A DNA stretch of 64,000 bases from Akkermansiaceae bacterium (GCA_022510805.1 JAFLSS010000003.1:1323-65322), one strand, 5' to 3'; positions 14,280-34,140 are shown, numbered from the stretch's first letter. A program made the numbers and translations. Notes: generated by a model not told the origin, from the sequence alone.

Positions 14280-14348
14280 ACCACGCACCGGGGGGCTCTG
14301 GCAAGCCTCATGTGGAACCAAGCGCGCGCCGCCGCCTATTAGCTGCCC

Positions 14349-14378
14349 TTGACTTGGGTGGGGTGGTGGTGGTATAGT
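14349..14378 (+). promoter_or_regulatory. Sigma70-like promoter abutting the amidase start codon
   Basis: TTGACT (14349-14354), N18, TATAGT (14373-14378). The ATG at 14385 lies only 6 nt after the -10 hexamer. Confidence 0.35.
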
Positions 14379-14384
14379 ACGGCT

Positions 14385-18243: not shown

Positions 18244-18337
18244 GAGTGCGCGTAGAAAGTCAAAGGGGGATTTCTGAAATTAGCCTAAAATGACGTAGTC
18301 AACAGCAAATGGGCGCTTCTCAAAAGGAGCCCGGTAT

Positions 18338-18400
18338 GACGATTGACTAACGGGAAAAAGGGACGCGCGCTGCGAGCTCTCCTTCTGTTAGTCAATCGTC
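18338..18400. repeat. Perfect 14-bp inverted repeat with a 35-nt loop
   Basis: GACGATTGACTAAC (18338-18351) and GTTAGTCAATCGTC (18387-18400). Confidence 0.6.
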
Positions 18401-18409
18401 GCCGAGCCC

Positions 18410-18973
18410 TCAGGGCATGGGGCTGATGCGGATGACTTCCACTAACTCCTCCTCGCCAGAGGAGCCCTTAATGCGTATGATGCCGCCGATGAGCGCTTTG
18501 CCCTGCACGCGCCATGTCATGCGCATGTGTACCGCGCCCGTGGCCACAGGATACAGCAAATGCAGCGCGGGGTATTCATCATCTGCCGCAGAATCCATCT
18601 CATACACCCCGTATAACGAATGGCGCCGCCCGCTGCATACACAGGCAAAGTGAGTGTCATCCAGCCACATGATTTGCTGTGTGACCTCCGGCGCCTGTAC
18701 ATTGACATGGAAGCAATAAAAGAAGCGCACTGCACCATCTGCCTCCTTTAGCGCGAGGTAATTATTCCACTCGGAATTATTCCCGTCGCGATGGAACACG
18801 ATGATGCGCTGCCCCTTCGAGTTCGGCTCGGAGATGAGCTGTATCTCTTTCTCTTGGATGGGGGCGGTGAGCTCTTGCAGGCACTCGGGCGTGAAGCGGG
18901 GCGCTTTCTCATCCGCTGCCGGGGCAAGCGCGACCAAGAGCATGGCGCCTATGGCACAAATGTACTTTTTCAT
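18410..18973 (-). CDS. Secreted hypothetical protein
   Basis: 187 aa with signal peptide MKKYICAIGAMLLVALAPAA. No family recognised. Confidence 0.6.
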   Translation of the reverse strand: MKKYICAIGAMLLVALAPAADEKAPRFTPECLQELTAPIQEKEIQLISEPNSKGQRIIVFHRDGNNSEWNNYLALKEADGAVRFFYCFHVNVQAPEVTQQIMWLDDTHFACVCSGRRHSLYGVYEMDSAADDEYPALHLLYPVATGAVHMRMTWRVQGKALIGGIIRIKGSSGEEELVEVIRISPMP

Positions 18974-18991
18974 GGGGAAAAAACCGGTAGA

Positions 18992-19999
18992 TTATTTTTT
19001 GACAGGTGGTTTTGCTTTCAGCGGCACGGCGTGGAAGGGCTGCGCCGGGGCGCCTTTGTGCTTGGCGGGGTTCATGGAGGAGATGTGCTCGGGGGTGATG
19101 GTGAAGGTGAAGGTGCCGCCTTTGGCTTCATCTTTGGCATCGAGGATGTGGTCGAACACGCAGACGGGTTGGTTGCCCTGTGTCTCGGGCATCACAAAGA
19201 GGCCGATGCCCATATTGGGGTGCTCTTGGCCGGAGCGGCTGTTGCGGATGGTGTAGGTGATGGTGTTTTTGCCACGGCGCAGCCCGCCGGAGATGGTGTC
19301 GGCCCGGCGCTCATCATCAAACTCATGGAGGGAGACCCCATTGATGCGCATCTCGATCTCGCGGCCGGGGCAGTCCACAAACACCTTGCCGATGAGCTCA
19401 GGCGCGGCGCAGGCAGGCGGCACAGAGGGGAGGCTGGTGTAGGGGTGGAAGCCATCCTGCTCACGCAGCACGGTCAGGTCATGCTCTTTCAGGCGCTTGA
19501 GCACGGCAGGCAGGCGGCTCAGGTCAAAAAAACGCGTCTGGTCAATCTTCCAGCGCCCGTCCTCATTCACCATGAGCACCACAAAGGCGTTGTCGCTCGG
19601 CTTGCCGTCACCCAGCTGCATCTTGCCGATGAAGGTGGCAGCCAGAGTCTTGCCGCCGCAGGCGCCCAAGGCGCCCACGAAGTGAAAGTGCTCCAGCTGG
19701 GGGGCTTGCTGAGCGCTGCGGAAGAAATCTCGGGGGAAGGAGCCGCGCTCGGAGATGATGAGGTTGCGCACGCGCATCTGGCGGGAGGCCGTGGTGTTGC
19801 GGCGCCAGGAGATTTCATCTCCCCGCTGCACGCTGAGGCGCCAGGTGTTGTACACCGTGTCCACCAGAGATCGGGCTTTCTGCTGATCAGGGGTGAGCAG
19901 GGCGGGCGCTTTCTCCGGGGAGGCGGAAGATTGAGCATGGGCTTGCAGGGCACCCCCGCAGGCCACCAGGGCGGACAAGGTCAGAAAAATGGCTCTCAT
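18992..19999 (-). CDS. Secreted hypothetical protein
   Basis: 335 aa with signal peptide MRAIFLTLSALVACGGALQAHA. No family recognised. Confidence 0.65.
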   Translation of the reverse strand: MRAIFLTLSALVACGGALQAHAQSSASPEKAPALLTPDQQKARSLVDTVYNTWRLSVQRGDEISWRRNTTASRQMRVRNLIISERGSFPRDFFRSAQQAPQLEHFHFVGALGACGGKTLAATFIGKMQLGDGKPSDNAFVVLMVNEDGRWKIDQTRFFDLSRLPAVLKRLKEHDLTVLREQDGFHPYTSLPSVPPACAAPELIGKVFVDCPGREIEMRINGVSLHEFDDERRADTISGGLRRGKNTITYTIRNSRSGQEHPNMGIGLFVMPETQGNQPVCVFDHILDAKDEAKGGTFTFTITPEHISSMNPAKHKGAPAQPFHAVPLKAKPPVKK

Positions 20000-20064
20000 G
20001 GCTCCTCTAACCTTACATCAGACTTGCCAATGTGGCAAGAAAATTGCATACTGTAGGGCAGGTT

Positions 20065-20946
20065 ATGACGCCATTTATTCGCCGATACAGCTCCGCCGAG
20101 GACGCGCGCCGCCACAGCAGCCTGCGCAAGGTGCCCTCGCTTGTCTGGAAGCGCTTTGAGGATAAGCACGAGCTGCGGATCAGCTTCTTTGAGCCGGAGG
20201 GGCACAGCGCAGCGCAGCGCACGCCGGCGGTCATGTTCTACTACGGCGGCATGTGGGCGCTGGAATATGAGGAGGAGTTTGTGGCCTGGGCCACTCACTT
20301 GGCCAGCCGCGGCGTCGCCTGCTTTATCCCTGAGTATCGCAACCGCGCCCGCTTTGATGTGACGGCGGACGAGATTGTGCAAGAGGGGATCGAGGCCTGG
20401 CAGTGGCTGCACTCCCAAGCGGAGAATCTGGGCATCGACCCGCGGCGCATCACCCTGGCTGGGGCAGATGCCGGCGGGCTCATGGCGCTCAATGCCGCCA
20501 TGCAGCCCATCGTGCGCAAGCGCAGCTGGTGGCGCTGGGGGAGCCAGGATGAGCTGCCTCTCATGCCGGCCTGTGTGGTGATTTTCCGCGGGGTAGTGGA
20601 TACCGAAGCACCGGAGGCGCGCATGCTGCGCGTGCAGGTGGAAGCGCCGGAGCCGGACAAGATCAACCCCTGCGCCCTGCTGCGCAGGAAGCTCCCGCCG
20701 CTCTTTTGTGTGCACGGCATGCTCGACCCGCTGCTCGATTATGAGATGCGTGAGTGGTTTTGCGAGGAGTGGAAGCGCCACGGCAACAAGGCGGAGCTCA
20801 TCCTCTGCCCGCAGGCAGACCACACCCTCACGCATTTTGCGGTCAATCCGGTAGTCTTTGAGCAAGTGCTGCGCGAGTGGGAGATCTTCATGGTGGAGCT
20901 GGGGCTCTGGCCGGAGGAAACGATCGGCGAGTGTTCGCTGGTGTGA
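20065..20946 (+). CDS. Alpha/beta-hydrolase fold protein (Abhydrolase_3/HSL-like) with an atypical nucleophile elbow
   Basis: YGGMW sits where the family has HGGG/W. GADAGG sits where it has GDSAGG. A C-terminal DPLLD and ADHTL supply the Asp/His candidates. Confidence 0.7.
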   Translation: MTPFIRRYSSAEDARRHSSLRKVPSLVWKRFEDKHELRISFFEPEGHSAAQRTPAVMFYYGGMWALEYEEEFVAWATHLASRGVACFIPEYRNRARFDVTADEIVQEGIEAWQWLHSQAENLGIDPRRITLAGADAGGLMALNAAMQPIVRKRSWWRWGSQDELPLMPACVVIFRGVVDTEAPEARMLRVQVEAPEPDKINPCALLRRKLPPLFCVHGMLDPLLDYEMREWFCEEWKRHGNKAELILCPQADHTLTHFAVNPVVFEQVLREWEIFMVELGLWPEETIGECSLV

Positions 20947-21005
20947 CGAGCCGCCGCTAGTTGTTATGAAACATGTTGAGCGGCGGCGGGGTCATACTGC
21001 ACGCT

Positions 21006-22493
21006 ATGAAGACCGCTTACCGCACACTCGCCATGGCAGCCGCCCTGGCCGCCGCCGCACAGGGGCAGACCGCCCTGCAATATGTGGAAACCATGTTCGG
21101 GTGGGATCCCTACGCCGGCAATCCCTCCCAAGTGTCGGGCAGCCTGCGCCGCGGGCTTGCCACGCATGAGCAGCAGTCGCGCCGCTACCCCGGCGTGCCC
21201 ACACATGAGAGTATTCTCCGGCAGGTAGAGCGCTACCTCTCCGGCACTGATAAAGCCCCGCGCTGCCACGGCTGGCGCCTGCTGCCCTCCACGCCGCAGC
21301 GCTTTATGCCATACCTGGACAGCATCTTTGTGCCGGGCAACACCTGCGCAGAGCCCTGCGGCATCATCTCCGAAGATGCGCTCTCCACCTCTGCCCAGCG
21401 CGTAAAGACAGCCCTCTCGCGCGTGGGCTTGCAGTACAACCTGACCCTCTCTGCCAACTACACGGCCCTGCCCCAGCACTTCACCGGCCGGCAGCGCGAC
21501 TTTATGGCATTCAACAATGTGGCCAACTTCACCTGGTTCCTGCTCAAGCACTGCGATGACACGCAGGGCTTATTCCTCTCGCTGGAGATGGATTGGGGGC
21601 CGGGGGTGAACTACAACGAGCGCAAGCGCAGCGCCCAAGGCTCCATCGGCTCGCTGAGCAACCCGCAGGGCAGCCTGCGCGGCGGGAATGGCGTGTTTAT
21701 CCCCAACCTCGCTTTGGGCTATAGCGCGTTTGACGGCAAGTGGGTGGGCATGGTCGGCACCATCGACACCACGGACTTTCTCGACCAGAACGCCTACTCC
21801 GCCAGCTGGAGCGGCAACCTCACTAATGAGGCGTTCAATTTCAACCCCTGTCTTCCGCTGGAGTGGGCAAACTGGGGCTACCTGACCGCCTGGCAGCCCT
21901 GCAAGCATTTCTACACCATGTACGCCACCACGGGCTGCAATGGCAAGATCAACCACAACCCCTTCCCCTATATCAGCAGCAACGCTTGGGTACACATCGG
22001 CGAGATTGGCCTGATTACGGATAACTTCCTCGGCCTCGGCCCCGGCACGTACCGCTTTCAGTACACCAGCACCCGCTACCGCAAGGAGAATGGCTCCGGC
22101 GTGGCGCTCAACTTTCAGCAGCGCCTCGGCGCCTCATCCCACCTGGGTGCGTTTACCCGCTGCGGCTTGCTGGATGAGGATGCCGCCACGGTGAGCAATG
22201 TGCGCGCCTGTATGACGGGTGGGCTGGTGCTGCAGGCGCCGTTTCGCTCCAGCGGCTGGGGCAGCAAGTCCAACAATGACCAAGTGGCGCTGGGCTTTTT
22301 GTGGGAGCGCGCCGCCCGCTCGGCCAAGCCCTACATGAACAAAGATGAATACGGACTCGAGCTCTCGGCGGTCATGCAGCTCACCCCCACCTTCTACCTC
22401 CAGCCCGATGTGCAGTACATCTTTAACCCCGTGCATGAGACCTCACACGCCGGCGCGCTGGTGCTTCAGCTGCAAGGCGTACTCAAGTTCTGA
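21006..22493 (+). CDS. Carbohydrate-selective porin, OprB family
   Basis: Signal peptide MKTAYRTLAMAAALAAAAQG. OprB-like C-terminus LTPTFYLQPDVQYIFNP... ending in LKF. Confidence 0.7.
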   Translation: MKTAYRTLAMAAALAAAAQGQTALQYVETMFGWDPYAGNPSQVSGSLRRGLATHEQQSRRYPGVPTHESILRQVERYLSGTDKAPRCHGWRLLPSTPQRFMPYLDSIFVPGNTCAEPCGIISEDALSTSAQRVKTALSRVGLQYNLTLSANYTALPQHFTGRQRDFMAFNNVANFTWFLLKHCDDTQGLFLSLEMDWGPGVNYNERKRSAQGSIGSLSNPQGSLRGGNGVFIPNLALGYSAFDGKWVGMVGTIDTTDFLDQNAYSASWSGNLTNEAFNFNPCLPLEWANWGYLTAWQPCKHFYTMYATTGCNGKINHNPFPYISSNAWVHIGEIGLITDNFLGLGPGTYRFQYTSTRYRKENGSGVALNFQQRLGASSHLGAFTRCGLLDEDAATVSNVRACMTGGLVLQAPFRSSGWGSKSNNDQVALGFLWERAARSAKPYMNKDEYGLELSAVMQLTPTFYLQPDVQYIFNPVHETSHAGALVLQLQGVLKF

Positions 22494-22513
22494 GCCCATG
22501 CCGCGCCCCGCTG

Positions 22514-22541
22514 CAGGGGAGGGGGATACCCCCCTCCCCTG
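22514..22541. terminator. Bidirectional hairpin between the convergent porin and integrase genes
   Basis: CAGGGGAGGGGG (22514-22525) and CCCCCTCCCCTG (22530-22541), with a 4-nt loop. Confidence 0.45.
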
Positions 22542-22549
22542 AGGGGTGC

Positions 22550-23650
22550 TTATTTGGAAATGGGGGAGTCCTTGGGGACTCCTAATGCCCAAAATGCTTT
22601 GGCGCTCTTGGCAGTCACGCCGTCCATGGCCAGGTAGCGCGTGCGGAGGAGCTCCAGAGAGGTGTGCCCCATATCAACCTGTAGCGCTGTCAAATCCTTG
22701 AAAAACTTTAGGTGATAAGAGGCAAAGGTGTGGCGCAGGATATCGGGCACCCAATCTGTGCACCCGGCTTCCTGCCGCAAGTTGTACCAGCGCTTGGCCC
22801 ATGTGCGCGGCACGATGGGAGCGGAGGGGGTGAAGTAATACATGCAATTGCGCAGCCAGTAAAAGAGCGGGGGGTACATGGTGACCTGGCGCGCGCCACC
22901 TGTTTTGGCATGCGCGGCGGGGATGGTGATCACCCGGTCTTCGAAGCTGATGTCGCTCTGGTGCAGGCGCAGGATCTCCGTGGGGCGCACGCCGGCCCAG
23001 AGCATGATGCCCAGCGCCGGCGCACAGGCGAGGTGGCGCTCCAGCAGGGAGGTGCGCAGCAGCGTGCTCACCTGCTCGATGGTGAGCACGCGGATGGGCT
23101 GCTCCTCATAGGGCGGCAGCACCACCAGATCCAGCGGGTTCGTGTCGCACCAGCCGTGGAGCCGCGCGTAGGAAAAGAGTGAGTGCAGAATCCGCCGCGC
23201 CTTGCGCCGCATCGGCACGGTCTTGAACACATACTCGATGCTGTGCTGGCAAAAATCTGAGGAGATCTCATTCATGCGCAGCCGGTTCCACTCCGGCATC
23301 TCGGCCACGAGGCGGTTGCACATCTGGCGCACTTCCTCAAAGGTGCGTGATTTGACGCTCGATTTGTATGTCTTATACCCGCGCACCGCTTCTTCGAAGG
23401 TGACGCTGCGCTGTGTCTGCTCAAAGGCGCACACGCCCAGCTTGATCACATGCCGGCAGTGCGTGAGCACGTTGGACATATCTCCCCCGCCCTCCCCCGG
23501 ACACTCCTCGAGCAACTCCATGATGAGCCGCACTGCATCTGTCGATTGCAGCTGCACATCCTTGAGCAGAAAATCAGCGGCTGTCTCATTAGACGTAATG
23601 ACAGTCTTGAGTTCACCCAAATCCAGAGGTAAGTCGTCGCTATTGCACAT
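22550..23650 (-). CDS. Tyrosine-type site-specific recombinase/integrase
   Basis: 366 aa. The catalytic set is present: AGVRPTEI (Arg), LRHTFAS (His-x-x-Arg), MGHTS (His) and RTRYL (Tyr). Confidence 0.85.
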   Translation of the reverse strand: MCNSDDLPLDLGELKTVITSNETAADFLLKDVQLQSTDAVRLIMELLEECPGEGGGDMSNVLTHCRHVIKLGVCAFEQTQRSVTFEEAVRGYKTYKSSVKSRTFEEVRQMCNRLVAEMPEWNRLRMNEISSDFCQHSIEYVFKTVPMRRKARRILHSLFSYARLHGWCDTNPLDLVVLPPYEEQPIRVLTIEQVSTLLRTSLLERHLACAPALGIMLWAGVRPTEILRLHQSDISFEDRVITIPAAHAKTGGARQVTMYPPLFYWLRNCMYYFTPSAPIVPRTWAKRWYNLRQEAGCTDWVPDILRHTFASYHLKFFKDLTALQVDMGHTSLELLRTRYLAMDGVTAKSAKAFWALGVPKDSPISK

Positions 23651-23773
23651 TGCGTACTATTCTACCTCTTTTTTTTCATTTCATCTACAATATCAAAAAA
23701 TTTTTTTTTAGATACTGAATATCAAAGCCTCAAAATTTGACCCATTTTAGCAAAACGTATCCGCCCCTGCATT

Positions 23774-23848
23774 TTTGCGCTCCAAAACACCCTTGCAAAA
23801 CGGCTGCAGCTCGCTTGTGGAGCGGGTTTGCGGCGTTTTGGGCGCAAA
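23774..23848. repeat. Imperfect inverted repeat in the TerL-integrase spacer
   Basis: TTTGCGCTCCAAAAC (23774-23788) faces GTTTTGGGCGCAAA (23835-23848). Nested partial inverted repeats surround a CTGCAG core. Confidence 0.5.
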
Positions 23849-23880
23849 TGAAGGGATGTGAAAAAATGCGAAAAAAAGCC

Positions 23881-25494
23881 TCACATGCGTGCTAAGCGCG
23901 GCGTATGGTGCAGAGTAAGAGGCACTACGAGACCGTGGCTAAGAGCCTCGGCAAACATGCGCGCAGCGTCGGCGCTGTGTGAAAATGCATCATGCACGGG
24001 CACTTCGCGGACTGCGCCTGAGGCGCCGGGCGGGGCGGTGTGGTACATCTCCAGGCAGGTGAGCCCGGAGGGTTCTTTGTCACCGCGCGGGGAGAGGCGC
24101 ACCGCCAGCGTATCGCGGTGAAACCAGCTCTGCGCGAGCAGGCTGCGCAGGGTGTTGATCCCGCGCCACACATCCGGCGTGCGCGGCACCACACGCACCG
24201 CGGAGATGCCGCAGTGGGCCAAGCTCTCCACATAGGACTGGCCGTGCGGGTCGCGGTGGGCGGCATCATGCGGCAGGAAATGCGCGCCGATGCGGCCGTA
24301 GCGCTGCTCCCACTCGTGGATTTTGGCGGCATAATGCTCAAGGGGGAGCTGATTGGCCGCGTAGTGGTTGAGCCAGTAGATCTGCCCGCCGTAGCGCTGC
24401 ACCAGCCAGATGGCCGTGTGGTCGCTCAGGCCGAGATCCCACGAGGTGTAGAACGGCTCAGCCGGGTTGGGCTCAAAATCCGCCCCCACGCGGCCTTGCT
24501 CGCGCAGCAGCGCGATCTGCGAGCCGTAGATGGCGCCGTCATTGCCGGTGGAGAAGGCCTCTTGCGGGGAGGAGGGGTACTCTTGGCGCATGGCAGCGCC
24601 CATCATGCGCTCCATGCGGGCATACCAGAGCTTCTGGCCGTGGCTCAGGGAGATACCGCTCTCGGACTCCAGCTTCTCGAAATAGGCCGCCAGCTCATCG
24701 CTCCACCCGCGGTGTGAGCCCGAGAGGCTGTAGTCCGGGTTGTCAAACCAGCTGAAGAAAAAGAAGCGAAAATCCAGCGGCGAGAGCCGGTGATCCTTGG
24801 CGTTGTTCTCCATGGCGCGCAGCAGCATCTCGTAATTCACGCCGTAGCGGCCGCCCTCATGGGTGCTCTCGAGGATGATGGTACCCTCTGCCGGCACGGT
24901 GTTGATGGCGCCGGTGCGGATTTCTCGGGCGCGCCACGGGGCGTGCACTGACACGTGTGCCAGCTCTGACACGTGCAGCAGCTGGAGGGTGCCGCCGCGC
25001 AGGGTGGTGCCGAGCCGCACATCGCTCCCATTGCTGAAGCTGAGGCGGGAGCGCGCATCGGAAGGCAGGCGCCACTCACCCCGCTTCTGCACGCCGGAGC
25101 CCTGCTTGATGAGGCGGCCGAGCAGGGCGAGCGCCTGCTCGGAGGAGTCAGCGGAGGGAGGCGCGTAGTCGAGGTGCTCCCACGCGAAGCGGATTTTTTC
25201 GAGCTTCTGCTCGGCATCCGGCAGAGTTTTGTCGATGATGCCTGCGTGGAAATTGGGCGTGAAGAGGCAGCGGTCGAGAATCAGCATGGCCACATAGGTG
25301 GAGATGCCGAGCTGGCGCGCTTTGAGGATGGCATTGCGGTGCCACAGGCAGCGGTGAAGCCGCAGCTGCGCGGCATTGAGCGTGAAGCGCTGCAAGTGGC
25401 CGGCTTTATTCTCGATCCAGTAGAGGTGCTGGAGGCGCCAGAGCGGGTCTGCCAAGCGCTCACGCAGGGCGGGGTGTTGGAGGGAATCCATCAT
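23881..25494 (-). CDS. Phage terminase large subunit (TerL)-like protein
   Basis: 537 aa. ATPase motif ILKARQLGISTY is preceded by LNAAQ. The RNaseH-like nuclease part has WDLGLSDHTAIW, HDAAHRD and HDAFSHSADAARM. The start overlaps the stop of the giant ORF (ATGA). Confidence 0.8.
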   Translation of the reverse strand: MMDSLQHPALRERLADPLWRLQHLYWIENKAGHLQRFTLNAAQLRLHRCLWHRNAILKARQLGISTYVAMLILDRCLFTPNFHAGIIDKTLPDAEQKLEKIRFAWEHLDYAPPSADSSEQALALLGRLIKQGSGVQKRGEWRLPSDARSRLSFSNGSDVRLGTTLRGGTLQLLHVSELAHVSVHAPWRAREIRTGAINTVPAEGTIILESTHEGGRYGVNYEMLLRAMENNAKDHRLSPLDFRFFFFSWFDNPDYSLSGSHRGWSDELAAYFEKLESESGISLSHGQKLWYARMERMMGAAMRQEYPSSPQEAFSTGNDGAIYGSQIALLREQGRVGADFEPNPAEPFYTSWDLGLSDHTAIWLVQRYGGQIYWLNHYAANQLPLEHYAAKIHEWEQRYGRIGAHFLPHDAAHRDPHGQSYVESLAHCGISAVRVVPRTPDVWRGINTLRSLLAQSWFHRDTLAVRLSPRGDKEPSGLTCLEMYHTAPPGASGAVREVPVHDAFSHSADAARMFAEALSHGLVVPLTLHHTPRLARM

Positions 25495-28400
25495 TCTTTA
25501 TCTTTCTCTTCTGCTTCTTCCTGGGCTTTTAATCGGCGCTGGCGGGCGTTCTCACTGCGCTCACCATACTTGCGGATGCGGGATTGGCGGCGTTTTTCCT
25601 CAATGGCCTGCCGGGCGGCTTCCTCAGCAGCCTGTAGCTCACGGATGCGCGGCATCGGGTCTTCGAACTCAGCTTTTTTGATGCGGAATGGGGTGGCCAA
25701 CGGGTCGAACGGCCTCTTGGCCTTGGGGTTCTTGCGCCGCTCTTCTTCCTCCGCAGCGCGGATGGCTTCTCGGCGGCGCCTCTCGGCACGCTTGGCGCTC
25801 TCGCTCTTGCGCTTTTCCTCCTCCGCGAGCCGCTTGGCCTCCTCCTCCGGATCCGGCTGGTCAAAGGAGCGCCGCGTCTCGTCGATCACCTGATCCAAGT
25901 GATTTTCCCACGCCTGCTTTCTGGGCTGAGCTTTGCCCTGCGTCTCCACTGCCTCCGGCTCCTCCTGCTCTGCCCGGGCAGCTTTTTTCGCCGGGGCTTT
26001 CCACTCCTCCTGCAGGGTAGAGGGGCGCAGGTGCAGCTTGCGGTTGCCCGCCAGCTTGTCGTTGGAGTAGGTGAGCAGGGAGTAGAGCGGGCGCATCTTG
26101 GCATCCTTGTCGAGCATGCGGGCGGTGGTGTCGACCAGGCGCCGGAGCTCGGCGCGCGGCTTGGGCGCGCAGACCACATGCACCATGTCGCTGAGCATAT
26201 TGACCAGCGAGGCCTCGCCCATGGTGAGGCTGCCGGGCTCTGCCTGCTCCAGGGATTTGGAGAAGCCGCTATCCTCAGCCAGGCGCATGAGATACTCCTG
26301 CATGTAGGTCGTGTGGTAGTCCGTGAGGCCACTCTCGAGGGCGCTGGTGGCGATGCGGTTGATCTGCGTGAGATTGTGGCGCAGCGCCAAATCAGCCCAC
26401 TCGCCACCCTGGCGGTAGTTGTCGCGCTCGCGGGAGCGGTAAAAGAGATGCAGCGGCGCCACACTGTTGGCACCCAGCTCCTGGTCATTCTTGATCACCT
26501 CATAGCTGTCCATGTACATCCCATTGCGGCATTGCACCACGTAGGGCAGGCGCAGGTTCGGGTCACTCAGGTTGATATTGCCCGGCATGAGGCGGTACAC
26601 ATGGGAGCGGTCCTTGTTGTAGCGGTACACGGTGACAGAGTTGATGAGCGGGCTGAGATCCAGATCCGGCGAGATGCCGCGCACGCGCACACCGCACACG
26701 TTGAGCTTGCCTCCCTCTGCGGCGCCCACACTTTGCAGCACGCGCAGCAAGGGGGAGATCGGCAGCTCGATGGAGTAGTTGCGCTCCAGCCCGGGCGGTG
26801 TCTTGCCGTGCAGGCCGCCGTAGGCATCGCCATTCCAAAGCACGCCCTCCTGGGTGGAGCGCGGGTAGTTGATGGCGGCTTGGCGCAGCTCATCCAGCAG
26901 GCCGAGGTAGGACTTGGCGTGCGGCCGGGAGAGGAACTCAGGCAGCTCATCCAGCACGGGCTCGTAGGTGCAGCCGGGGGAGGTTTCCCAGCGGTCACCC
27001 CGGCGGGCGAAACTGCCGGCAGACTCCGGCACGGCGGGCACATCATCCTGCAAGCTGATGCGCAGCAGGCGGGATGTGCCGCCGGCGCCGGCCATGCTGT
27101 AGGCGTGCATCTCCGGGTGTTTTTGCAGCATATCGCCGAGCATACCCATCACCCTATCCACCGAGATATCCCCCTGCTTGTTGCGCCGCAGGGTGGAGAA
27201 ATACGGGTCCTGCTCGCAGTAATCAGCCACAGTATCGTAGAGCATGTTGTAGTGGTAATCCCCCAGCAGCTCGCGCTTCCAGCCGGCGCGGGGGTGGGCG
27301 AGCATGTACCAGAACCCGGCTTGCGGATTCTGCAGCCCCTGGTCCCCCAGCGCGCGGAAGCACCACCCGCGCTCGCAGTTGATATCCTCATTCTCGCCAA
27401 AGGCATCGCTGAGGATGGGGTCCATGAACTCATCCGGGCGGACCTTGGTGCGCGCGGCCTCGATGGCGTCCGACCAGCTGCGCAGCTTCTCAGCCGTGCG
27501 GCGGTTGGCCCAGCTGGCCAGGCGGCGGTTCTCCTCTTCCAGCTTCACGACGGGTGAATTGCGGCCGCGCCCGCGGGGGTCTATCTCCGGCTTGGGGCAG
27601 AAGGCCGACATCCCCACCCACAGTTTCACGGATTCCGGCACATCCAGCTCTTGCATCTTTGCCAGGTAGCGCACGGTGGTGTACTCTGAGAGCGCATGCG
27701 CCACGCTGGTGATGACCTCCTCATTGGGGTTAGACTTGCTCATGCGCTTGGGGATTCTGTAGAGGGGGCTAGCCAGCTGGCTATTGGGCACGCGCACATC
27801 ATCCTCGCCGAGGGCATAGCCCTGCTTCTGCAAGAACTCATGCGCCCGCAGCGGGGTGATCACATGGCTGCGCAGCTGGCGCAGCCAGTACACAAAGAAG
27901 CGCGTCTGCATGAGCGCCAGCGGCGACACGCTCGAGGTGCTGTCCACATCAAACACCGTGCTGCCATTGAGCGCCTCACTCTGCACGATGCGGGGAGTCA
28001 CGCTATCATCCGCCCCGGCATCGGCAAAACCGCGCAGGAAATGCCTGTAGGCCGCCATGTTGATACCGGGCACCAGCTTGGTGGCGGTGGAGCCCCAGAG
28101 GCGCGTGAGATCCTCTGTCGCGTCCATGCTCAGATCATCATGCAGGCAATAGCCCTCCTTGTGGCGCAGGCGATACGGCCCCGGCAGCTGCGACGGGCGG
28201 TTGATCTTGGCCAGGCGGTTCAGGTCGATAGGCGCCTGCTTGGGCAAGAAAAACAGGTGCGCATGCCCCACCAGATCATTCTCTGCGGGCTCTGCGGCGG
28301 GATACCAGCCGGTGTAGGAGCCATCCGGGCGCTGATCACGCGTGTAGGTCACGCCATCGGACTCCTCGCTCTCGGGGTGGTAATTGGTGAGCTGGCGGTA

Positions 28401-31325
28401 GTGCTTGAGGCTGGCGGATCTGGCGATGGGCTCGAAGGCGATGGGCGGCGTGTCGAACTTGCGGCCGTTGTTCTCCCAGCCTTGCATGATGAGCTCCTCA
28501 GACACACCCAAGCCCTTGGCAAGCAGGCGCCCATAGGCCTGCACCGGCGTGAGCCCCTCCACCAGCGCTTGGTGGTACTCTTGCGTGCAGGGAATGGCTT
28601 CCTCCATCTTTTCAATGGTGTCGCAAAGGCCGATGAGCACCTGCTGTGCGCTGAGCTCCTGCCGGCTTTTGACCAGCTCTTGAGCAGCTCGGCTGAGGAT
28701 GGTGTTTTCCTCTTTCCCATGGGGCGGGGTGGCCGACTCTGCCAGCGAATCAGGCGCCTCACCGCCGAATGCGCGTATACTGGTCGGCAGGTAGTCGAAG
28801 ATCTCCTCCTTGAACACGGCATCCCGCGCCTCACCGGCCATCGAGCGCACGATCGTGCGCGCTACTTTGACCAGCAAGTTTCTGCGGTCGAGCTCCACCA
28901 CCTTGCCCAACTCCTCAGCCGGCATAGGATTGCGCACGAGGGTGTCCATGGTATGGAACGCGAGGGCGTGGCGGTATGAGAGCTGCTCAAGCTGGCGGAA
29001 ACCACCGGCCGCGTAGGAATCATAATCTGCATGGGGCGACAAGCGGTAGCTGGCCTCCGCCTGCTCCGAGCCGGCGGCATGCTGATCCGGCAGCTCCGGG
29101 AGGGGCTCTGAGCCGAAGCCGGCGCGGCGCCACCATTGTTCGTAGAGGGAGCGCACCTGCTGCGTGCGCTCATGAGAAGCCGCGCGTATCTCCTCCGGCC
29201 AAGGGATGCCAGCCGACTTCTTCTTGGCAGATGAGGCGGGCGCCGGCAGCTTGAAAAACTCCCGCGCCGTCTTCTTATCCCAGAAGCCGCGGTAGTCCTC
29301 AATCCCCAGCAAGCGGAGCGCGCGCAGCGCGTATTCCGAGAAATCCACACTCTCAAACACCTTGCTCTCGTTGAGAGCCTTGTAGAGCAGCTCCGACCGG
29401 CGCGCCACATCCGGCTCCGCCAGCACCTCCGCGCGCTTCTCTGCGCTGATCCCGAGGCGCTCCATCATGGTGCCATCCCCGAGCACCGCGCGCTGTGAGC
29501 GGAAGTGCTGCAGCCCCAGTTGGCCGGAGCGCAGCAGCAGATACGGCAGCAGAGCCGCCGCCTCGTGCATGTTGCTCTCAATATCCGTCACATTGTCGCC
29601 GAAGCTCTCCCAGTCAATATTGGACGCCACGCCATTCACCCGCGCGGCCATCTCCTGCATCCCCAGCGCGCCGGCGTGCGACAACTTGCCTGCGGTGTAT
29701 TGCTTGAGCATCTCCTCCATGCCGCCGGCAGCCGTGAGATTCAGCGCGCCTATAGAATAGAGCGCACCCTTGCCGCGCGCCTGCGCAAAGCGGCTGATAC
29801 CGCGCTCCATGAGCTTGCCGCCCACCTTGTTGATCCCGGTGTAGATACCTGTTTGCAGCGCCCCGCCCAGCAGTCCGGCAAAGAACTGCAGCTCCTGGCG
29901 GCCCTGGGGCGCGCGCTCACGCGCCTCAGCCACCGCATCGCTCACAGAGCTGAGGGTGACCGCCGCGAACCCGGGCGCGCCGCAAAAACTCAGCACCGTG
30001 CTCGGCACACTCTGCGCCGCGTCCAACAAGTAGGCCGAGTACTCGTTCTCCTTGCCGGCCTGCACCAGCGGCCGCAGCTCCTCCTGCGAGAAGTGGCGCA
30101 GCTTGTTAAACACCTGCGACCTCTTGTCCCAGGCGTTGGCCAGCTCCTCAGCCCCGCCGACACCGGCGGCAGAGCTGTAGAGATGCAGGGAGCTGACACC
30201 CAGCTGCGAGAGCACGCGGTACATCCCGAAATTCATATTGGCAACACCGCGGCGCGAGGCCTGCATCATGCGCGTCACCAGATTCGGCACATCACTCTCC
30301 ACTTTCTTGTCCTGCGCCATGCCGGCGGCGAGGTAGAGCACCGTGTAGAACTCCGGCTCATCCAGCTCTGCCAGCTCATCCACCGCGCGCACCAGATCCG
30401 GCACCGCACCCGCCATGCGCGGCAGGAAAAAGGCATCTTCCTCCAGCGCAGAAAAAGCCTCCAGGCCACGCGTCACCCGCGCCGCCAAATCCTTGTAGCG
30501 CTCACGCGCCGCCTGCCCCTGGCGGAAAGCCTCCTCCGCCAGCTTGGCAGACTTGCCGGGCTTATCCTGGCCGAACAAGCGAGACGCCGTCTCCAGCGTC
30601 AGCGGGTGCATACCATCCAGCGCCGCCATATAACAGCGCTGAGCAATATCGCGCGCCATCTCGCGGATCGGCTCCTGCTCCTCCTGCTGCGAAAGCGCCA
30701 GGAAGAGCTCCTCCTCATTATCGCGCACACCAAAGCTGCGGGTGAGCTCCGCGCGGCGCTGCTTCCAGCGGGCATGCACCTGCTCGCGGGTATCGGAGGA
30801 GTGATCCACCACCCACGAGCGATTCAGCGTGCGCAGCATGCGGTACTCCCGCTGCTCCTCGGGCAGGTTCCACTCATCCGCCCCGGTGCGCTGCCGCACC
30901 TCTGCCGGCACAGTGGAGGGATCCCCCGTGAGTATGGCTCGCCAATACGCGCGCTTGCGGCCGGCAGCAGCGGCATCTGCCGCCTCTGCGGCGGCGGGTG
31001 GCTCCGGCTCAGCAGGCGCCTGCTCAGCAGGGGCCGGCGGCGGCTCCTCCGCGCGCTGGGGCACAGCGGGGGCCTCATCCTCCGGCTCATCCTCATGAAG
31101 CGGCGGCTCCGGCTGAGCATCTGCCGGCTCATCAGGCAAAGCATCTGCCGGCTCTTCCGGCAGGGAATGCGCCTCCTCAGCAGCAGGCGGCAGCTCAGCG
31201 GCGGCATCATCAGCAGCATCAGCGGGCGGCAGCTCAGCGGCAGCATCAGCGGCGGCAGGTGTATCAGCGAGGCTCTGCTCCGGCTCGAGCAGAGTTGTCG
31301 GTTGGTGTGTCATCGTGTCCATCAT
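25491..31325 (-). CDS. Giant hypothetical protein (about 1,944 aa), no recognisable domain
   Basis: Uninterrupted 5.8-kb ORF. The listed start 31334 is a TTG; the first ATG is at 31325. It has an acidic Pro/Ala-rich repetitive N-terminus and a Lys/Arg/Glu-rich C-terminus. Confidence 0.8.
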   Translation of the reverse strand: MMDTMTHQPTTLLEPEQSLADTPAAADAAAELPPADAADDAAAELPPAAEEAHSLPEEPADALPDEPADAQPEPPLHEDEPEDEAPAVPQRAEEPPPAPAEQAPAEPEPPAAAEAADAAAAGRKRAYWRAILTGDPSTVPAEVRQRTGADEWNLPEEQREYRMLRTLNRSWVVDHSSDTREQVHARWKQRRAELTRSFGVRDNEEELFLALSQQEEQEPIREMARDIAQRCYMAALDGMHPLTLETASRLFGQDKPGKSAKLAEEAFRQGQAARERYKDLAARVTRGLEAFSALEEDAFFLPRMAGAVPDLVRAVDELAELDEPEFYTVLYLAAGMAQDKKVESDVPNLVTRMMQASRRGVANMNFGMYRVLSQLGVSSLHLYSSAAGVGGAEELANAWDKRSQVFNKLRHFSQEELRPLVQAGKENEYSAYLLDAAQSVPSTVLSFCGAPGFAAVTLSSVSDAVAEARERAPQGRQELQFFAGLLGGALQTGIYTGINKVGGKLMERGISRFAQARGKGALYSIGALNLTAAGGMEEMLKQYTAGKLSHAGALGMQEMAARVNGVASNIDWESFGDNVTDIESNMHEAAALLPYLLLRSGQLGLQHFRSQRAVLGDGTMMERLGISAEKRAEVLAEPDVARRSELLYKALNESKVFESVDFSEYALRALRLLGIEDYRGFWDKKTAREFFKLPAPASSAKKKSAGIPWPEEIRAASHERTQQVRSLYEQWWRRAGFGSEPLPELPDQHAAGSEQAEASYRLSPHADYDSYAAGGFRQLEQLSYRHALAFHTMDTLVRNPMPAEELGKVVELDRRNLLVKVARTIVRSMAGEARDAVFKEEIFDYLPTSIRAFGGEAPDSLAESATPPHGKEENTILSRAAQELVKSRQELSAQQVLIGLCDTIEKMEEAIPCTQEYHQALVEGLTPVQAYGRLLAKGLGVSEELIMQGWENNGRKFDTPPIAFEPIARSASLKHYRQLTNYHPESEESDGVTYTRDQRPDGSYTGWYPAAEPAENDLVGHAHLFFLPKQAPIDLNRLAKINRPSQLPGPYRLRHKEGYCLHDDLSMDATEDLTRLWGSTATKLVPGINMAAYRHFLRGFADAGADDSVTPRIVQSEALNGSTVFDVDSTSSVSPLALMQTRFFVYWLRQLRSHVITPLRAHEFLQKQGYALGEDDVRVPNSQLASPLYRIPKRMSKSNPNEEVITSVAHALSEYTTVRYLAKMQELDVPESVKLWVGMSAFCPKPEIDPRGRGRNSPVVKLEEENRRLASWANRRTAEKLRSWSDAIEAARTKVRPDEFMDPILSDAFGENEDINCERGWCFRALGDQGLQNPQAGFWYMLAHPRAGWKRELLGDYHYNMLYDTVADYCEQDPYFSTLRRNKQGDISVDRVMGMLGDMLQKHPEMHAYSMAGAGGTSRLLRISLQDDVPAVPESAGSFARRGDRWETSPGCTYEPVLDELPEFLSRPHAKSYLGLLDELRQAAINYPRSTQEGVLWNGDAYGGLHGKTPPGLERNYSIELPISPLLRVLQSVGAAEGGKLNVCGVRVRGISPDLDLSPLINSVTVYRYNKDRSHVYRLMPGNINLSDPNLRLPYVVQCRNGMYMDSYEVIKNDQELGANSVAPLHLFYRSRERDNYRQGGEWADLALRHNLTQINRIATSALESGLTDYHTTYMQEYLMRLAEDSGFSKSLEQAEPGSLTMGEASLVNMLSDMVHVVCAPKPRAELRRLVDTTARMLDKDAKMRPLYSLLTYSNDKLAGNRKLHLRPSTLQEEWKAPAKKAARAEQEEPEAVETQGKAQPRKQAWENHLDQVIDETRRSFDQPDPEEEAKRLAEEEKRKSESAKRAERRRREAIRAAEEEERRKNPKAKRPFDPLATPFRIKKAEFEDPMPRIRELQAAEEAARQAIEEKRRQSRIRKYGERSENARQRRLKAQEEAEEKDKE

Positions 31326-31339
31326 AAGAAACAAAAAAA

Positions 31340-32584
31340 TTAGGAAAGAGAATCAGCCTCAAAGCAAACCCAGCGGTCCGACAAGCGGCGCAGCTCATGC
31401 ACCCACTGCGCCGCGCCCTCGCGCCCGCCCTGCTCCAGCCGCGCCAGGCACTCCTGCTGCAAATCCGCAAGGTGCCGCTGCGCCGCCGCATCCTCCGGGC
31501 AGCCCAGCACCCCATCCCGGTACAAATCCTGCACGCTGCGGCTGAGCAGCAGGCGGTCCTGCGCCGGGAGCCGCAGACTCTGCTCCACCCGCCCCAGCAA
31601 GCGGCGCTTATCCTGCGCCGGCAGCGGCGCCGTGGCGATGGCGAGTCGCAGCTGCTCAGCTGAGGCCTCATCCTCCGGGCACTCATTGGCCCGCTGCACC
31701 CAGTGGTTGAGCTGCGCCGGCGAAAGCTCGGCAGGCGCCTGCTGCAGCGCCGCCTCCGCCTGCTCGCGGGAGATCACGCCGGCCCGTGCAGCGAGATCCA
31801 GAAACTCCGGCTCGGGCGAGAGCTCATTCTGCAGGCAGTACTCCAGATCCTGAAGCACCTGTTTGCGGGCAGAGCGCCGCGCCACCCCCTTGGCCTGCTC
31901 CAGGCGGCGGGCATCTGCCTGCCGGCGGGGGAGCGCCTCCTCTGCCGCCTCTGCCAGCGCGCCCAACCCGCGCAGGGGTTCCACCTCCAAATCCTGCTGC
32001 CAGCGCGCCAAATGCGCCCGGCTCTCCGCCTGCTCATTCTCCTCCTGCATGCCCTCCTCCGGCACAAAAATACCCTGCCCGGCCTGTAGCCACTCCTGAG
32101 CCTGCACCACATTCCCCTGCTCGACAGCATCATCCACCCGCGCCCGCCACTGCGAGCGCGCCCGGTCAATCTTGCGCAGCTCAAAATCCCGCTGCGCCTC
32201 CACAGAAGCGCGGGCGCTATATGCATCTGCCAGCTTGCGGCCGGCGGCGCGCGCCTCCGGCGAGAGCTCCTCGATGGCCTCCGCCAGCTTGGGCGCAGAG
32301 GCCGCCTGCCAGGCGTAATTCCAATCTTGCACCTCCTGCTCCGCCAGCTCATCGCGCGTTTCATGGTCAATCGACTTGAGACGCTCCGAAAAATCAGCCA
32401 GCTCCCCCATCGTCGCCACACGAGCACGCTCCTCCAGCACCTTAGCCCCGCCCATCAGCGCGGCAGAAATACCCTCTCCCATGCGCCGGGCGGCATCAGC
32501 CCAGCCTGTGAGACCATCTGTCGGCACGTGCACCCCCCGAGAGGGCTGCCCCATCATGCCCCATTCTTTCATGCGGATTGACAT
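31340..32584 (-). CDS. Hypothetical, predicted all-helical Ala/Glu/Arg/Gln-rich protein
   Basis: 414-aa ORF ending 14 nt upstream of the giant ORF ATG. No family recognised. Confidence 0.7.
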   Translation of the reverse strand: MSIRMKEWGMMGQPSRGVHVPTDGLTGWADAARRMGEGISAALMGGAKVLEERARVATMGELADFSERLKSIDHETRDELAEQEVQDWNYAWQAASAPKLAEAIEELSPEARAAGRKLADAYSARASVEAQRDFELRKIDRARSQWRARVDDAVEQGNVVQAQEWLQAGQGIFVPEEGMQEENEQAESRAHLARWQQDLEVEPLRGLGALAEAAEEALPRRQADARRLEQAKGVARRSARKQVLQDLEYCLQNELSPEPEFLDLAARAGVISREQAEAALQQAPAELSPAQLNHWVQRANECPEDEASAEQLRLAIATAPLPAQDKRRLLGRVEQSLRLPAQDRLLLSRSVQDLYRDGVLGCPEDAAAQRHLADLQQECLARLEQGGREGAAQWVHELRRLSDRWVCFEADSLS

Positions 32585-32694
32585 GCCACAAGCATGCCCC
32601 CGCTACCCGCTTGGCGTCAACCAAGCAGGGCACCCCCTCCTGAGTATTCCCGGGGGGGAATCCTTGCGCGCCCCCCCCACATTGTGGCGGCAGC

Positions 32695-33102
32695 TTACTG
32701 CGCCCAATGCCAATGCAGCACCTTGGGGATATCCGGGTGCAGGGAATTCCCCACCGGGCAACTCGCCACGGCGGCCTCCATCAGGCGGCGCTGCTGCGGC
32801 TGGGTCGGCATGGGCACCGTGATATCAAAATGAAGGCTCCCCACCCCCTGAGTCCCCTCACCACAAGCAGCTTGGATGCAGATACCCACCGTCTCAAACC
32901 CCTTGCGCTTGCCCGTGTAGGCCACCATGCTCAGCATGCAGGAAGCCACTGTGGCCGCAAGCAAGTCACCGGGCGAGGGCTGCTCACCCAGGCCGCCCAT
33001 CGCGGCATCCACATCAGTGACCACCCGGGTGCGAGTCGCATTATAAAACTCCGTATGGCAGCGCATACCCGTCTCAAGTGTCGTGGCAGATGTATAGTCC
33101 AT
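32695..33102 (-). CDS. OsmC/Ohr family peroxiredoxin-like protein
   Basis: 135 aa. The typical GDLLAATVASCM and AVASCPV cysteine contexts are present. Confidence 0.8.
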   Translation of the reverse strand: MDYTSATTLETGMRCHTEFYNATRTRVVTDVDAAMGGLGEQPSPGDLLAATVASCMLSMVAYTGKRKGFETVGICIQAACGEGTQGVGSLHFDITVPMPTQPQQRRLMEAAVASCPVGNSLHPDIPKVLHWHWAQ

Positions 33103-33252
33103 ACCCGCATTCTAAGCCGCAGAGCCCAAGCTGTCAACCCAACTTATCCGCCCGGTAGAGCCGGCTCATGCACCGCCCGCCGCGGCCGGGCTGCCGGGAG
33201 TGGCTGCAATTTGGGCTTGATTGTCTGCGGCTTGTTTTGTATATAAACGCTC

Positions 33253-34140
33253 ATGCAGATGATCGTGTTTGGCGGGAGCGGGCGAGTGGGGCAAGTGCTG
33301 TGCCGGGCGGCGCGCGCCGCCGGGTGGGATGTGCTGGCCCCGGCGCATGCGGAGTGTGATCTCGCGCAGCCCGGCGCCGCGGCGGAGCTCCTGCTCGCGC
33401 ATGCCGGAGCAGAGGCCGTGGTCAACTGTGCTGCCATCTCCGGCCTGGAAGCCTGCGCTGACAATCCGCTGCGCGCCCACCGCATCAACGCCATGGCTCC
33501 GGCGGAGATGGCCCTCATCTGCCGCCACACCGGCGCGCGCTTCCTGCACCTCTCCACCGACTATGTGCTGGACGGCCGCCGCCCCGGCCTGAAGGCGGAA
33601 TCCGCTAAGTGCAAGCCCATCAGCACCTACGGCGAGAGCAAGCGCGAGGGCGAGCAGCAGATCCTCGACACCCGGGCCGAGGCGCTCATCCTGCGTGTCT
33701 CCTGGGTGTGCGGCAACCCGGAGCGCCCCTCCTTTGTGGAGAGCACGCTGGCCCGCGCCCTGAGCGGGCAGCCCCTCGCTGCCATAGATGACAAATATTC
33801 CCTGCCCACACACGCAGCCGACATCGCGCGCGCCCTCCTGGCCCTCATCCCGCGCCCGGAGAGCGGCATCCTCCACCTCACCAGCGGCAGCTCTGAGCCT
33901 CTCAGCTGGCACTGCTGCGCCACCCTTGCCCTGCAGGAAGCCGTGCGCTCAGGCGCCCTGCCTGAGCTGCCGCCCATCACCCGCCAACACCTGCGCGAAG
34001 CCGCCTTTTTCCGCGAGCCGCGCCCCGTGCACACCGCCATGGACACCACCGCCCTGCAAAGCGCCCTGGGGCACCCCCTGCCCACGGCAGAAGCAACCCT
34101 GCGCCGCGCCGTGCAAGACTACCTGAGCCGCCGCCGCTAA
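33253..34140 (+). CDS. rfbD: dTDP-4-dehydrorhamnose reductase
   Basis: 295 aa. GGSGRVG Rossmann motif, an STDYV-type catalytic region and YGESK. Confidence 0.8.
   Translation: MQMIVFGGSGRVGQVLCRAARAAGWDVLAPAHAECDLAQPGAAAELLLAHAGAEAVVNCAAISGLEACADNPLRAHRINAMAPAEMALICRHTGARFLHLSTDYVLDGRRPGLKAESAKCKPISTYGESKREGEQQILDTRAEALILRVSWVCGNPERPSFVESTLARALSGQPLAAIDDKYSLPTHAADIARALLALIPRPESGILHLTSGSSEPLSWHCCATLALQEAVRSGALPELPPITRQHLREAAFFREPRPVHTAMDTTALQSALGHPLPTAEATLRRAVQDYLSRRR

Follow-up and report, generated by a model that had tools for sequence, protein, structure and literature searches.

Introduction

Why should a bacterial chromosome keep an apparently intact phage packaging motor among its housekeeping genes? 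The question is raised by a locus of an Akkermansiaceae bacterium (GCA_022510805.1), which lies in a stretch of 64,000 nucleotides (JAFLSS010000003.1:1323-65322), analysed as a whole and hereafter called the window. The initial annotation of this stretch described a four-gene island made of a tyrosine integrase, a large terminase (TerL), a giant open reading frame (ORF) of about 1,944 amino acids (aa) and a helical protein of 414 aa, the last two regarded as ORFans, and proposed that it could be a capsid-hijacking satellite, a domesticated TerL-driven module or a minimal mobile element. The analysis presented here indicates that three of these genes, those for the 414-aa protein, the giant and TerL (window positions 23881-32584), form an operon that is a fixed chromosomal locus inherited across the Akkermansiaceae. 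This operon descends from a podovirus with a T7-like structural module, and it is part of a wider group of conserved genes for phage structure and packaging that are spread over several loci. The best reading of these observations, to which we give roughly even odds, is that the operon represents one locus of a dispersed and chromosomally fixed podovirus remnant, possibly forming particles like those of gene transfer agents or defective phages.

A three-gene operon fixed across the Akkermansiaceae

A word-based search for relatives of the giant protein in a collection of 5.8 billion proteins returned ten only, and their contigs contained every time a gene of ~405 aa, the giant and a TerL of ~535 aa, with an integrase in one of them only. 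A total of 86 loci were recovered and examined over 10 kb on each side. They include the 80 loci kept from a scan of one genome per species, which gave 82 relatives, nearly all of the loci kept being named Akkermansia, Akkermansiaceae or Verrucomicrobiales and obtained from animal and human gut sources. In all sufficiently long contigs of the 86 loci, tblastn with the window proteins revealed the same order of 414-aa gene, giant and TerL, with tight gene junctions that are commonly overlaps of 4 nt, and with housekeeping neighbours that differ among loci. The adjacency of TerL and the giant, which the initial annotation had suggested following in related genomes, is indeed conserved, but the presence/absence polymorphism expected of an island was not seen, as the operon is present in all the relatives examined. 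Nor do the four genes behave as one mobile unit, because the conserved order comprises three genes and the integrase adjoins them in only 2 of the 86 loci.

The three genes evolve at very different rates. Identity to the window proteins over the loci is 66-84% for TerL (falling to 60% among metagenome proteins without an assigned locus), 23-60% for the 414-aa protein and 24-37% for the giant, with median pairwise identities of 76%, 36% and 30%, respectively. In the comparison between the window and a locus of its closest clade (L004), TerL (84%) stands with bioB (85%), trmB (77%) and aroE (65%), followed by the 414-aa gene (60%) and the giant (37%). The conservation of TerL equals that of the neighbouring housekeeping enzymes, whereas the other two genes evolve fast yet under purifying selection. 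The latter is apparent in the comparison with L094, a strain 99% identical in DNA, where the giant shows 4 nonsynonymous and 20 synonymous differences (a count that leaves out its indel-shifted low-complexity start), the 414-aa gene 0 and 2, and codons 1-460 of TerL 3 and 9, an excess of synonymous changes that therefore points to purifying selection on all three genes. Moreover, giant ORFs of 5.2-6.1 kb are kept uninterrupted in about 80 species. The GC content of the module follows that of the flanking DNA in each genome (from 49% to 66%, r = 0.66), which argues for a long residence in the host genomes. An OsmC-like gene is found upstream of the operon only in the closest clade (the window, L002, L004, L005 and L094), and no replication, repressor/lysogeny or regulatory modules were seen in the recovered loci.

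The terminase

To judge from its sequence, the TerL of the operon is a real and intact large terminase. Among annotated phage TerLs, 607 phage records match it, the best of the matches listed showing 33-35% identity over 94-97% of the length with E-values down to 1e-62, and the protein also matches the PHROG family phrog_2 (E = 7e-25) and Pfam PF17289 (24.2 bits, with a cut-off of 22.6). A profile search of the PDB by sequence gave no relative. The ATPase motifs KARQLGIST (residues 58-66), RGGT...HVSE (166-177) and ESTHEG (209-214), as well as the nuclease motifs WDLGLSDHT (352-360), PHD (408-410) and SHSADAAR (505-512), are all in place. Alignment with the TerLs of Ralstonia phage Cimandef, Pseudomonas phage PS-1 and Moraxella phage Mcat8 leaves KARQxG[IF][ST]T, RGGT..HVSE, ESTxEG, WDxG..D.T, PHD and S..ADA.R as invariant motifs, together with the nuclease residues D353, D358, D410 and D509, and the ATPase motifs are also invariant across 7 members of the family. 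The initial claim of a preserved ATPase signature and acidic nuclease motifs is confirmed for every motif that it quoted, and the catalytic substitutions that it had considered as a possible objection do not appear in the alignment. Two short insertions, absent from those three phages, are partly present in a phage-like relative (L136) and are therefore better regarded as traits of the lineage than as signs of decay. The protein shows the features of an ASCE ATPase and of an RNaseH-like nuclease, together with full-length homology to phage terminases. Neither a portal gene nor one for a small terminase (TerS) was found beside it, either within 10 kb in any of the 86 loci or in the window.

The relatives of this TerL form a continuous series down to ~55% identity. 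At lower identity, an IMG/VR contig of 79.5 kb (L136:9965-21303) encodes a TerL 49% identical to that of the window, closer than any deposited-phage TerL, which is placed between tubular-B-like and tubular-A-like genes in an order shuffled with respect to T7. Another particular case is a 415-aa TerL fragment (P0121), 72% identical to that of the window and deposited as a protein of the nematode Cylicocyclus nassatus, which is probably a gut-bacterial contamination of this assembly.

The giant protein and its phage relatives

The giant protein starts with a disordered region rich in Pro, Ala and Glu (aa 1-120), followed by a conserved all-helical module (aa ~121-700), and its C-terminal half is of a mixed alpha/beta type and ends in a tail rich in Lys, Arg and Glu (aa ~1750-1947). 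AlphaFold models built on an alignment of 9-10 sequences gave an all-helical structure for aa 121-880 (pLDDT 61) and a mixed alpha/beta one for aa 860-1760 (pLDDT 70, pTM 0.63). The protein has no match in Pfam, PHROG, PADLOC or NCBIfam. In a Foldseek search with its N-terminal half, the top three BFVD matches are 'ART-PolyVal-like' or uncharacterised giants of uncultured tailed phages (E 1.7e-4 to 2.5e-3). A profile of aa 121-700 run against 1.84 billion representatives recovered ~75 full-length members of the family, as well as a second tier of proteins of 2,000-3,700 aa (E 1e-25 to 1e-8), among them P0210, which carries PF18760 (ART-PolyVal). A hidden Markov model obtained from 82 giants matches these second-tier proteins in two modules that follow the same order. 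By tblastn, the window giant directly matches the N-terminal part of the phage giants, and P0210 matches 74 of the Akkermansiaceae module loci.

The gene order of the phage contig that encodes P0210 is T7-type portal, scaffold/protease, major capsid protein, tubular A, tubular B, a phrog_418 internal virion protein, a 487-aa gene and, at the end, the giant. This order was found in at least 20 of the 29 giant-carrying IMG/VR contigs, some of which show an endolysin-like gene and/or an integrase after the giant. Taken together, the fold and profile searches, the shared modules, the tblastn matches and the gene order of the phages mark the giant, as far as sequence relationships and gene position go, as a homologue of the largest of the internal virion proteins, placed as gp16 is in T7, from a broad range of podoviruses. 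Some versions of this phage protein carry polyvalent effector domains. With such relatives in the profile, module and tblastn comparisons, its description as an ORFan no longer holds. For the C-terminal half, a podoviral 'internal protein / lysozyme' was also considered, with fold-search probabilities of 0.06 or lower, and was not used.

Other observations were made on this family. The most conserved stretch of the giant (aa 440-500, about window positions 29835-30015) contains two Gly/Ala-rich, weakly hydrophobic helices, one of which includes the only segment of the protein with a Kyte-Doolittle hydropathy above 1.4 (aa 446-464, 19-residue window). Despite its conservation, this stretch has the lowest AlphaFold confidence, and it may correspond to a membrane-inserting or partner-dependent region. 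A set of viral contigs of ~25-37 kb (L172-L183 of IMG/VR, mostly from human-gut metagenomes) harbours giants of 2,700-3,700 aa after the capsid, tubular A and tubular B genes, directly similar to the window giant (23-28% identity). These contigs may represent present-day podoviruses of Akkermansia. Finally, a divergent full-length giant (P0208, 1,747 aa; L096:10001-15244) stands alone among cobalamin and housekeeping genes, with neither the 414-aa gene nor TerL adjoining, in a sample of the same series as that of one of the outgroup TerL clusters described below.

The 414-aa protein, which starts the operon, is acidic, lacks a signal peptide and any hydrophobic segment, and has no match in Pfam, PHROG, PADLOC or NCBIfam. 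An orthologue precedes the giant in 83 of the 86 loci. This location directly upstream of the giant is also that of the ~487-aa gene in the related podoviruses, so that the 414-aa protein could be the positional counterpart of the ~487-aa phage protein.

Related clusters and the portal locus

More distant TerLs, with 55-59% identity, were found at the end of compact clusters of ~10 kb (L087-L089), which lack an integrase and are conserved amid differing housekeeping genes. These outgroup clusters contain tail-tubular-A-like (phrog_394) and tail-tubular-B-like (phrog_376) genes, an internal virion protein (phrog_418), an endolysin, a T7-type portal (PF12236 / phrog_332), a small Bbp19-like gene and, before TerL, a gene of ~140 aa that may encode a TerS. 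No capsid gene was found in any of these three clusters, which look like another domesticated form of the phage lineage behind the operon. Traces of the same gene set are also present at the three-gene operon itself, as a tubular-B-like gene directly follows TerL in L007, and an endolysin homologue lies ~3.3 kb upstream of the operon in L008.

Homologues of the outgroup portal were found in more than 100 clusters at 53-59% identity, named Akkermansia or Akkermansiaceae, and several of them are annotated as the portal or head-tail connector of Akkermansia sp. or Akkermansiaceae, in contigs of up to 226 kb. Among themselves, the Akkermansia portals share 58-75% identity, a level close to that of TerL. 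In at least 8 metagenome-assembled genomes, that of L007 included, portal and TerL occur in the same NCBI accession series, 135-706 numbers apart. In the IMG/VR copies of this Akkermansia portal locus, a tubular-A-like gene and a TerS-like fragment are found on one side, and a Bbp19-like gene and a scaffold/protease-like gene on the other. As a whole, the structural genes recovered in Akkermansiaceae are those of the portal, adaptor-like, scaffold-like, TerS-like, TerL and internal proteins, plus a nozzle-like gene only in L007 and the outgroup.

Two further features were noticed at the portal locus. In L101 (12760-21557), an island of low GC (32-50%) with a KAP-family NTPase comes right after the scaffold-like gene, where the related phages have their capsid gene. 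In addition, many IMG/VR provirus calls end exactly at the boundary between the scaffold-like gene and the low-GC island.

The integrase and the 3′ end of TerL

The integrase does not belong to the operon. It is a neighbour that varies between strains, located where a recombination breakpoint falls within the last ~77 codons of TerL. It matches PF00589 (E = 1.5e-14) and, aligned to XerD, keeps 5 of the 6 canonical catalytic positions (R, K, the second R, the second H and a candidate Tyr). The HxxR motif attributed to it in the initial annotation actually reads DILR, with Asp in the position of the first His, a change shared with its orthologue in L002. This is also the only other locus where an integrase adjoins TerL, the two integrases being 58% identical and the spacers that separate them from TerL not conserved.

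The window and L094 are ~99-100% identical from rplM to about codon 460 of TerL, but identity drops to ~69% in the last ~77 codons of the gene, and the sequences downstream are unrelated. L094 shows there a different gene on the opposite strand, its contig ends at that point, and the integrase is absent within the available 368 bp after TerL. The part that varies between strains is the region downstream of TerL and not the operon. As for the strain in which the foreign TerL 3′ end originated, no assignment was made, given that the window and L094 versions are equally distant from the relatives.

In L004 and L005, TerL abuts a convergent bioB. A 9-kb block composed of bioB, an amidase, aroE, yajC, tgt, trmB, a gene of ~279 aa (the size called in L004; the ORF listed for the window has 335 aa), an esterase and OprB is inverted in the window and L002 with respect to L004 (9503-17885), and the integrase sits exactly at one of the junctions. 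Beyond the other junction there are RecN and metabolic genes, with no mobile-element cargo. No att-like direct repeats were detected around the region, nor between the TerL 3′ end and either junction of the inversion. The 3′ end of TerL is probably a hot spot for recombination or integration, and the integrase would most simply be a remnant of an element that used it.

Layout and setting of the locus

The coordinates of the operon and its surroundings are collected in Table 1. The architecture described initially is fully supported, with four uninterrupted ORFs on the minus strand, an ATGA overlap between the giant stop and the TerL start, a gap of 14 nt between the 414-aa ORF and the giant ATG, and an AT-rich spacer before the integrase. 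The housekeeping character of the neighbours was also verified: an esterase and OprB on one side, and OsmC, RmlD and the ribosomal proteins S9/L13 on the other. The GC content is 65% for the module, 62% for the host and 60% for the integrase. As previously stated, there is no other phage structural gene in the 64-kb window. Neither tRNA nor tmRNA genes were found in the window, no Rfam families occur in 22000-33400 (spacer included), and none of the four proteins matches a PADLOC model at E <= 0.1.

Table 1. Positions of the operon, its neighbours and the outgroup clusters (window numbering unless a contig is given)
Feature	Position	Strand	Remarks
414-aa protein gene	31340-32584	minus	uninterrupted ORF; first gene of the conserved operon
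Giant protein gene	25491-31334	minus	1,947 aa from the first TTG (31334); 1,944 aa from the ATG at 31325
TerL gene	23881-25494	minus	537 aa, uninterrupted
Recombinant 3′ tract of TerL (codons ~461-537)	23881-24114	minus	from comparison with L094
AT-rich spacer between TerL and integrase	23651-23880		230 bp, 40% GC
Tyrosine recombinase (integrase) gene	22550-23650	minus	366 aa; outside the conserved module
OsmC-like gene	32695-33102	minus	upstream neighbour of the operon, conserved in the closest clade
Housekeeping segment bioB...OprB	13296-22493		inverted relative to L004; context, outside the module
Outgroup cluster L087	L087:1250-11689		
Outgroup cluster L088	L088:1567-11653		
Outgroup cluster L089	L089:1644-11677		

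Two potential regulatory signals were noticed at the borders. A sigma-70-like promoter match (TTGACA-17 nt-TAGAAT, 11/12) lies upstream of OsmC on the minus strand (33137-33109), and OsmC may head a transcript that takes in the three-gene operon, which would make co-transcription possible. At the opposite end, a GC-rich hairpin with a T-run (22531-22546, plus strand) lies in the 57 bp that separate OprB from the integrase gene, and these two convergent genes may share it as a terminator.

Interpretation and rival explanations

If the operon is one locus of a dispersed podovirus remnant, the set would still assemble a DNA-packaging structure, most likely particles resembling gene transfer agents or defective phages. 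TerL would pump DNA through the portal. The 414-aa protein and the giant would be taken up as internal core proteins and, on delivery, would be ejected and form or protect a conduit for the DNA into the recipient cell. The fast divergence of the internal proteins would then reflect their encounter with variable envelopes or host defences, and the near-frozen TerL and portal would be the conserved motor. A more specific proposal, which we put forward tentatively and consider doubtful at present, is that Akkermansiaceae carry a podovirus-derived gene transfer agent or a capsid-less DNA-delivery machine at dispersed loci, with TerL coupled to two ejection proteins that open the recipient envelope. 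A circumstantial hint of DNA-transferring particles comes from Kleiner et al. (PMC7667829), who reported that Verrucomicrobia contigs were 3.5-fold over-represented among the mouse-gut contigs with transduction-type coverage in virus-like-particle DNA.

Several observations weigh against this interpretation. A search that covered the loci at hand only found no major capsid gene in the window, within 10 kb of any of the 86 loci or next to the Akkermansia portal. It combined tblastn of two capsid proteins from phages against the window and every module locus, a lenient search of the sequence that follows the Akkermansia scaffold-like gene, and scans with Pfam and PHROG of the ORFs of unknown function flanking the portal. 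The co-occurrence of portal and TerL in the same genomes rests on accession-number series and not on inspected assemblies. With respect to the giant, the Foldseek TM-scores of the N-terminal half are low (~0.2), the C-terminal half gave no significant match in a fold search of BFVD and PDB, and hhalign showed no similarity to T7 gp16 or gp14/gp15 (probabilities of 0.4% or lower). The 414-aa family likewise shows no similarity by hhalign to the phage 487-aa protein or to T7 gp14/15/16. In addition, the pairwise identities of the three operon genes correlate at only 0.30-0.56, and it is from distribution, GC tracking and partial synteny that we infer the vertical inheritance of the operon.

Other functions can be considered for a fixed operon of this kind. 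The homologues of TerL and of the internal proteins could work as an anti-phage or superinfection-exclusion module that poisons packaging, cuts concatemers or blocks the ejection channel of related podoviruses. Prophage-derived genes are often retained for exclusion, related temperate podoviruses with homologous giants occur in gut viromes, and the very fast divergence of the giant and the 414-aa gene beside a frozen TerL resembles an arms race. However, recent pN/pS values are low and not diversifying, no PADLOC family matches, the operon sits among housekeeping genes as a fixed feature of at least 82 species and is not patchy in defence islands, and the portal, adaptor and scaffold-like set conserved in the same genomes would be needless for interference, all of which makes this explanation improbable. 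We find it even harder to favour a capsid-independent translocation machine, in which TerL, portal, adaptor/nozzle and ejection-type proteins would build a headless, envelope-spanning device for DNA export or import. The genes recovered are indeed precisely those that do not encode the shell (portal, both tubular proteins, internal virion proteins, a TerS-like protein and TerL), with no capsid gene found, and T7 gp14/15/16 form a trans-envelope DNA conduit. Yet the scaffold/protease-like gene after the portal implies head assembly, to our knowledge terminases work only on procapsid-embedded portals, and the missing capsid gene may reflect the 10 kb examined on each side. The initial idea of a capsid-hijacking satellite survives as a mode of action, although satellite mobility or presence/absence behaviour is not observed. 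The operon would then be a chromosomally fixed, immobile module whose TerL redirects packaging into the capsids of infecting or resident podoviruses, where the internal proteins would be loaded, in the manner of satellite piracy or of lateral transduction. A TerL of its own with no capsid nearby fits this scheme, as do the related phages with compatible portals and capsids in the same habitat. Dependence on a helper is nonetheless quite unlikely, as no integrase, att sites or presence/absence behaviour are tied to the module, and the portal and scaffold-like genes of these genomes make a helper less necessary.

The remaining explanations deny the operon a fixed location or a function. That the locus is no more than prophage debris waiting to decay agrees with its clear phage origin and with the loss of other phage genes at the locus, but it is very hard to reconcile with the conservation of TerL at the level of housekeeping genes, with the strong excess of synonymous changes in the comparison with L094, and with uninterrupted giant ORFs at 24-37% identity in so many species. 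Hardly any likelihood is left for a four-gene integrative island (integrase, TerL and two ORFans) moving as a unit. In its favour, an integrase adjoins TerL on the same strand in the window and L002, with an AT-rich spacer in between. Against it, about 84 of the 86 loci lack an adjacent integrase, as does L094 in the sequence available, there are no flanking direct repeats, the upstream OsmC is conserved across the clade, and the GC of the module is not below that of the host, in contrast with those of the integrase and the spacer. For the same reasons of fixation in species genomes, GC tracking and a rare integrase, the option of a minimal mobile element is discarded. The domesticated TerL-driven module is, of the three initial options, the closest to the evidence of a fixed and conserved operon. 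The giant does have relatives among polyvalent-type internal virion proteins of phages, a result that had been anticipated as a possible objection, but a normal prophage at the same locus was not found in the relatives.

If the more specific proposal of a podovirus-derived gene transfer agent or capsid-less delivery machine is correct, this would be the first domesticated element of the kind with a podovirus origin and the first in Verrucomicrobia, and it would provide a medically relevant gut symbiont with a built-in route of DNA exchange. Should the set still build particles or a conduit, an unrecognised route of gene transfer or DNA release would operate in Akkermansia, a genus under probiotic development. 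In any case, the maintenance of an intact terminase at housekeeping-level conservation through the radiation of a whole bacterial family is unusual, and the conserved 3′ end of its gene seems to be a target for recombination or integration. A note of caution for annotation also follows, as software for prophage or virome detection will call these loci viral, and IMG/VR already lists the Akkermansia portal locus, apparently composed of fixed host genes.

Comparison with known systems

No described gene transfer agent or satellite is known to join a terminase and internal virion proteins in one operon, and the literature searched on Akkermansia terminases, gene transfer agents and Amuc locus tags contained no account of the module. 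The closest parallels are gene transfer agents (RcGTA of Rhodobacter capsulatus, for instance) and defective phages like PBSX, where phage structural and packaging genes are likewise fixed in a clade, distributed over several loci and kept under purifying selection. As in those systems, the clade-fixed phage genes come without replication or lysogeny modules, and TerL and portal are the best conserved. On the other hand, known gene transfer agents have a siphovirus- or myovirus-like ancestry, a capsid gene and demonstrated particles, whereas the present system has a podovirus ancestry, no capsid gene found, and is known from genes alone. Moreover, its locus pairs TerL with internal virion proteins and not with portal and capsid genes.

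Regarding phages of the T7 type (Autographiviridae), the giant of the phage relatives occupies the position of gp16, as the last gene behind those of the two tail tubular proteins (A and B) and a small internal virion protein, with a mid-sized gene before it in the position of gp15. This gp16-like position holds in the phage contigs but not in the window, where those upstream genes are missing. Like gp14/15/16, the proteins in these positions are large, mostly helical and fast-evolving. Sequence similarity to the T7 proteins is not detectable, however, and no lytic transglycosylase domain was found, so that the assignment comes from position and from homology to non-T7 phage giants. A second parallel is offered by the polyvalent proteins of phages and conjugative elements, a class named by Iyer et al. 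2017 (PMC5512222). The giant belongs to this class, as phage giants of 2,200-3,700 aa, among them P0210 with its PF18760 domain, are homologous to its N-terminal modules. Polyvalent proteins carry several effector domains, whereas the window giant has no recognisable effector (enzymatic) domain, is ~1,000-1,800 aa shorter than its phage relatives, is fixed in the clade and appears translationally coupled to the terminase.

Phage satellites (PICI, capsid-forming PICI, P4-like, PLE) also carry a small phage-derived set of packaging genes in the absence of a full phage, and in the window an integrase adjoins the set. However, satellites are mobile, patchy and bounded by att sites, whereas the operon is fixed, has no att repeats and its integrase neighbour is not conserved. 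Domesticated sets of phage genes are, in summary, a known kind of element, and what is new in the present one is that it descends from a podovirus, couples a terminase to internal virion proteins and occurs in the Akkermansiaceae.

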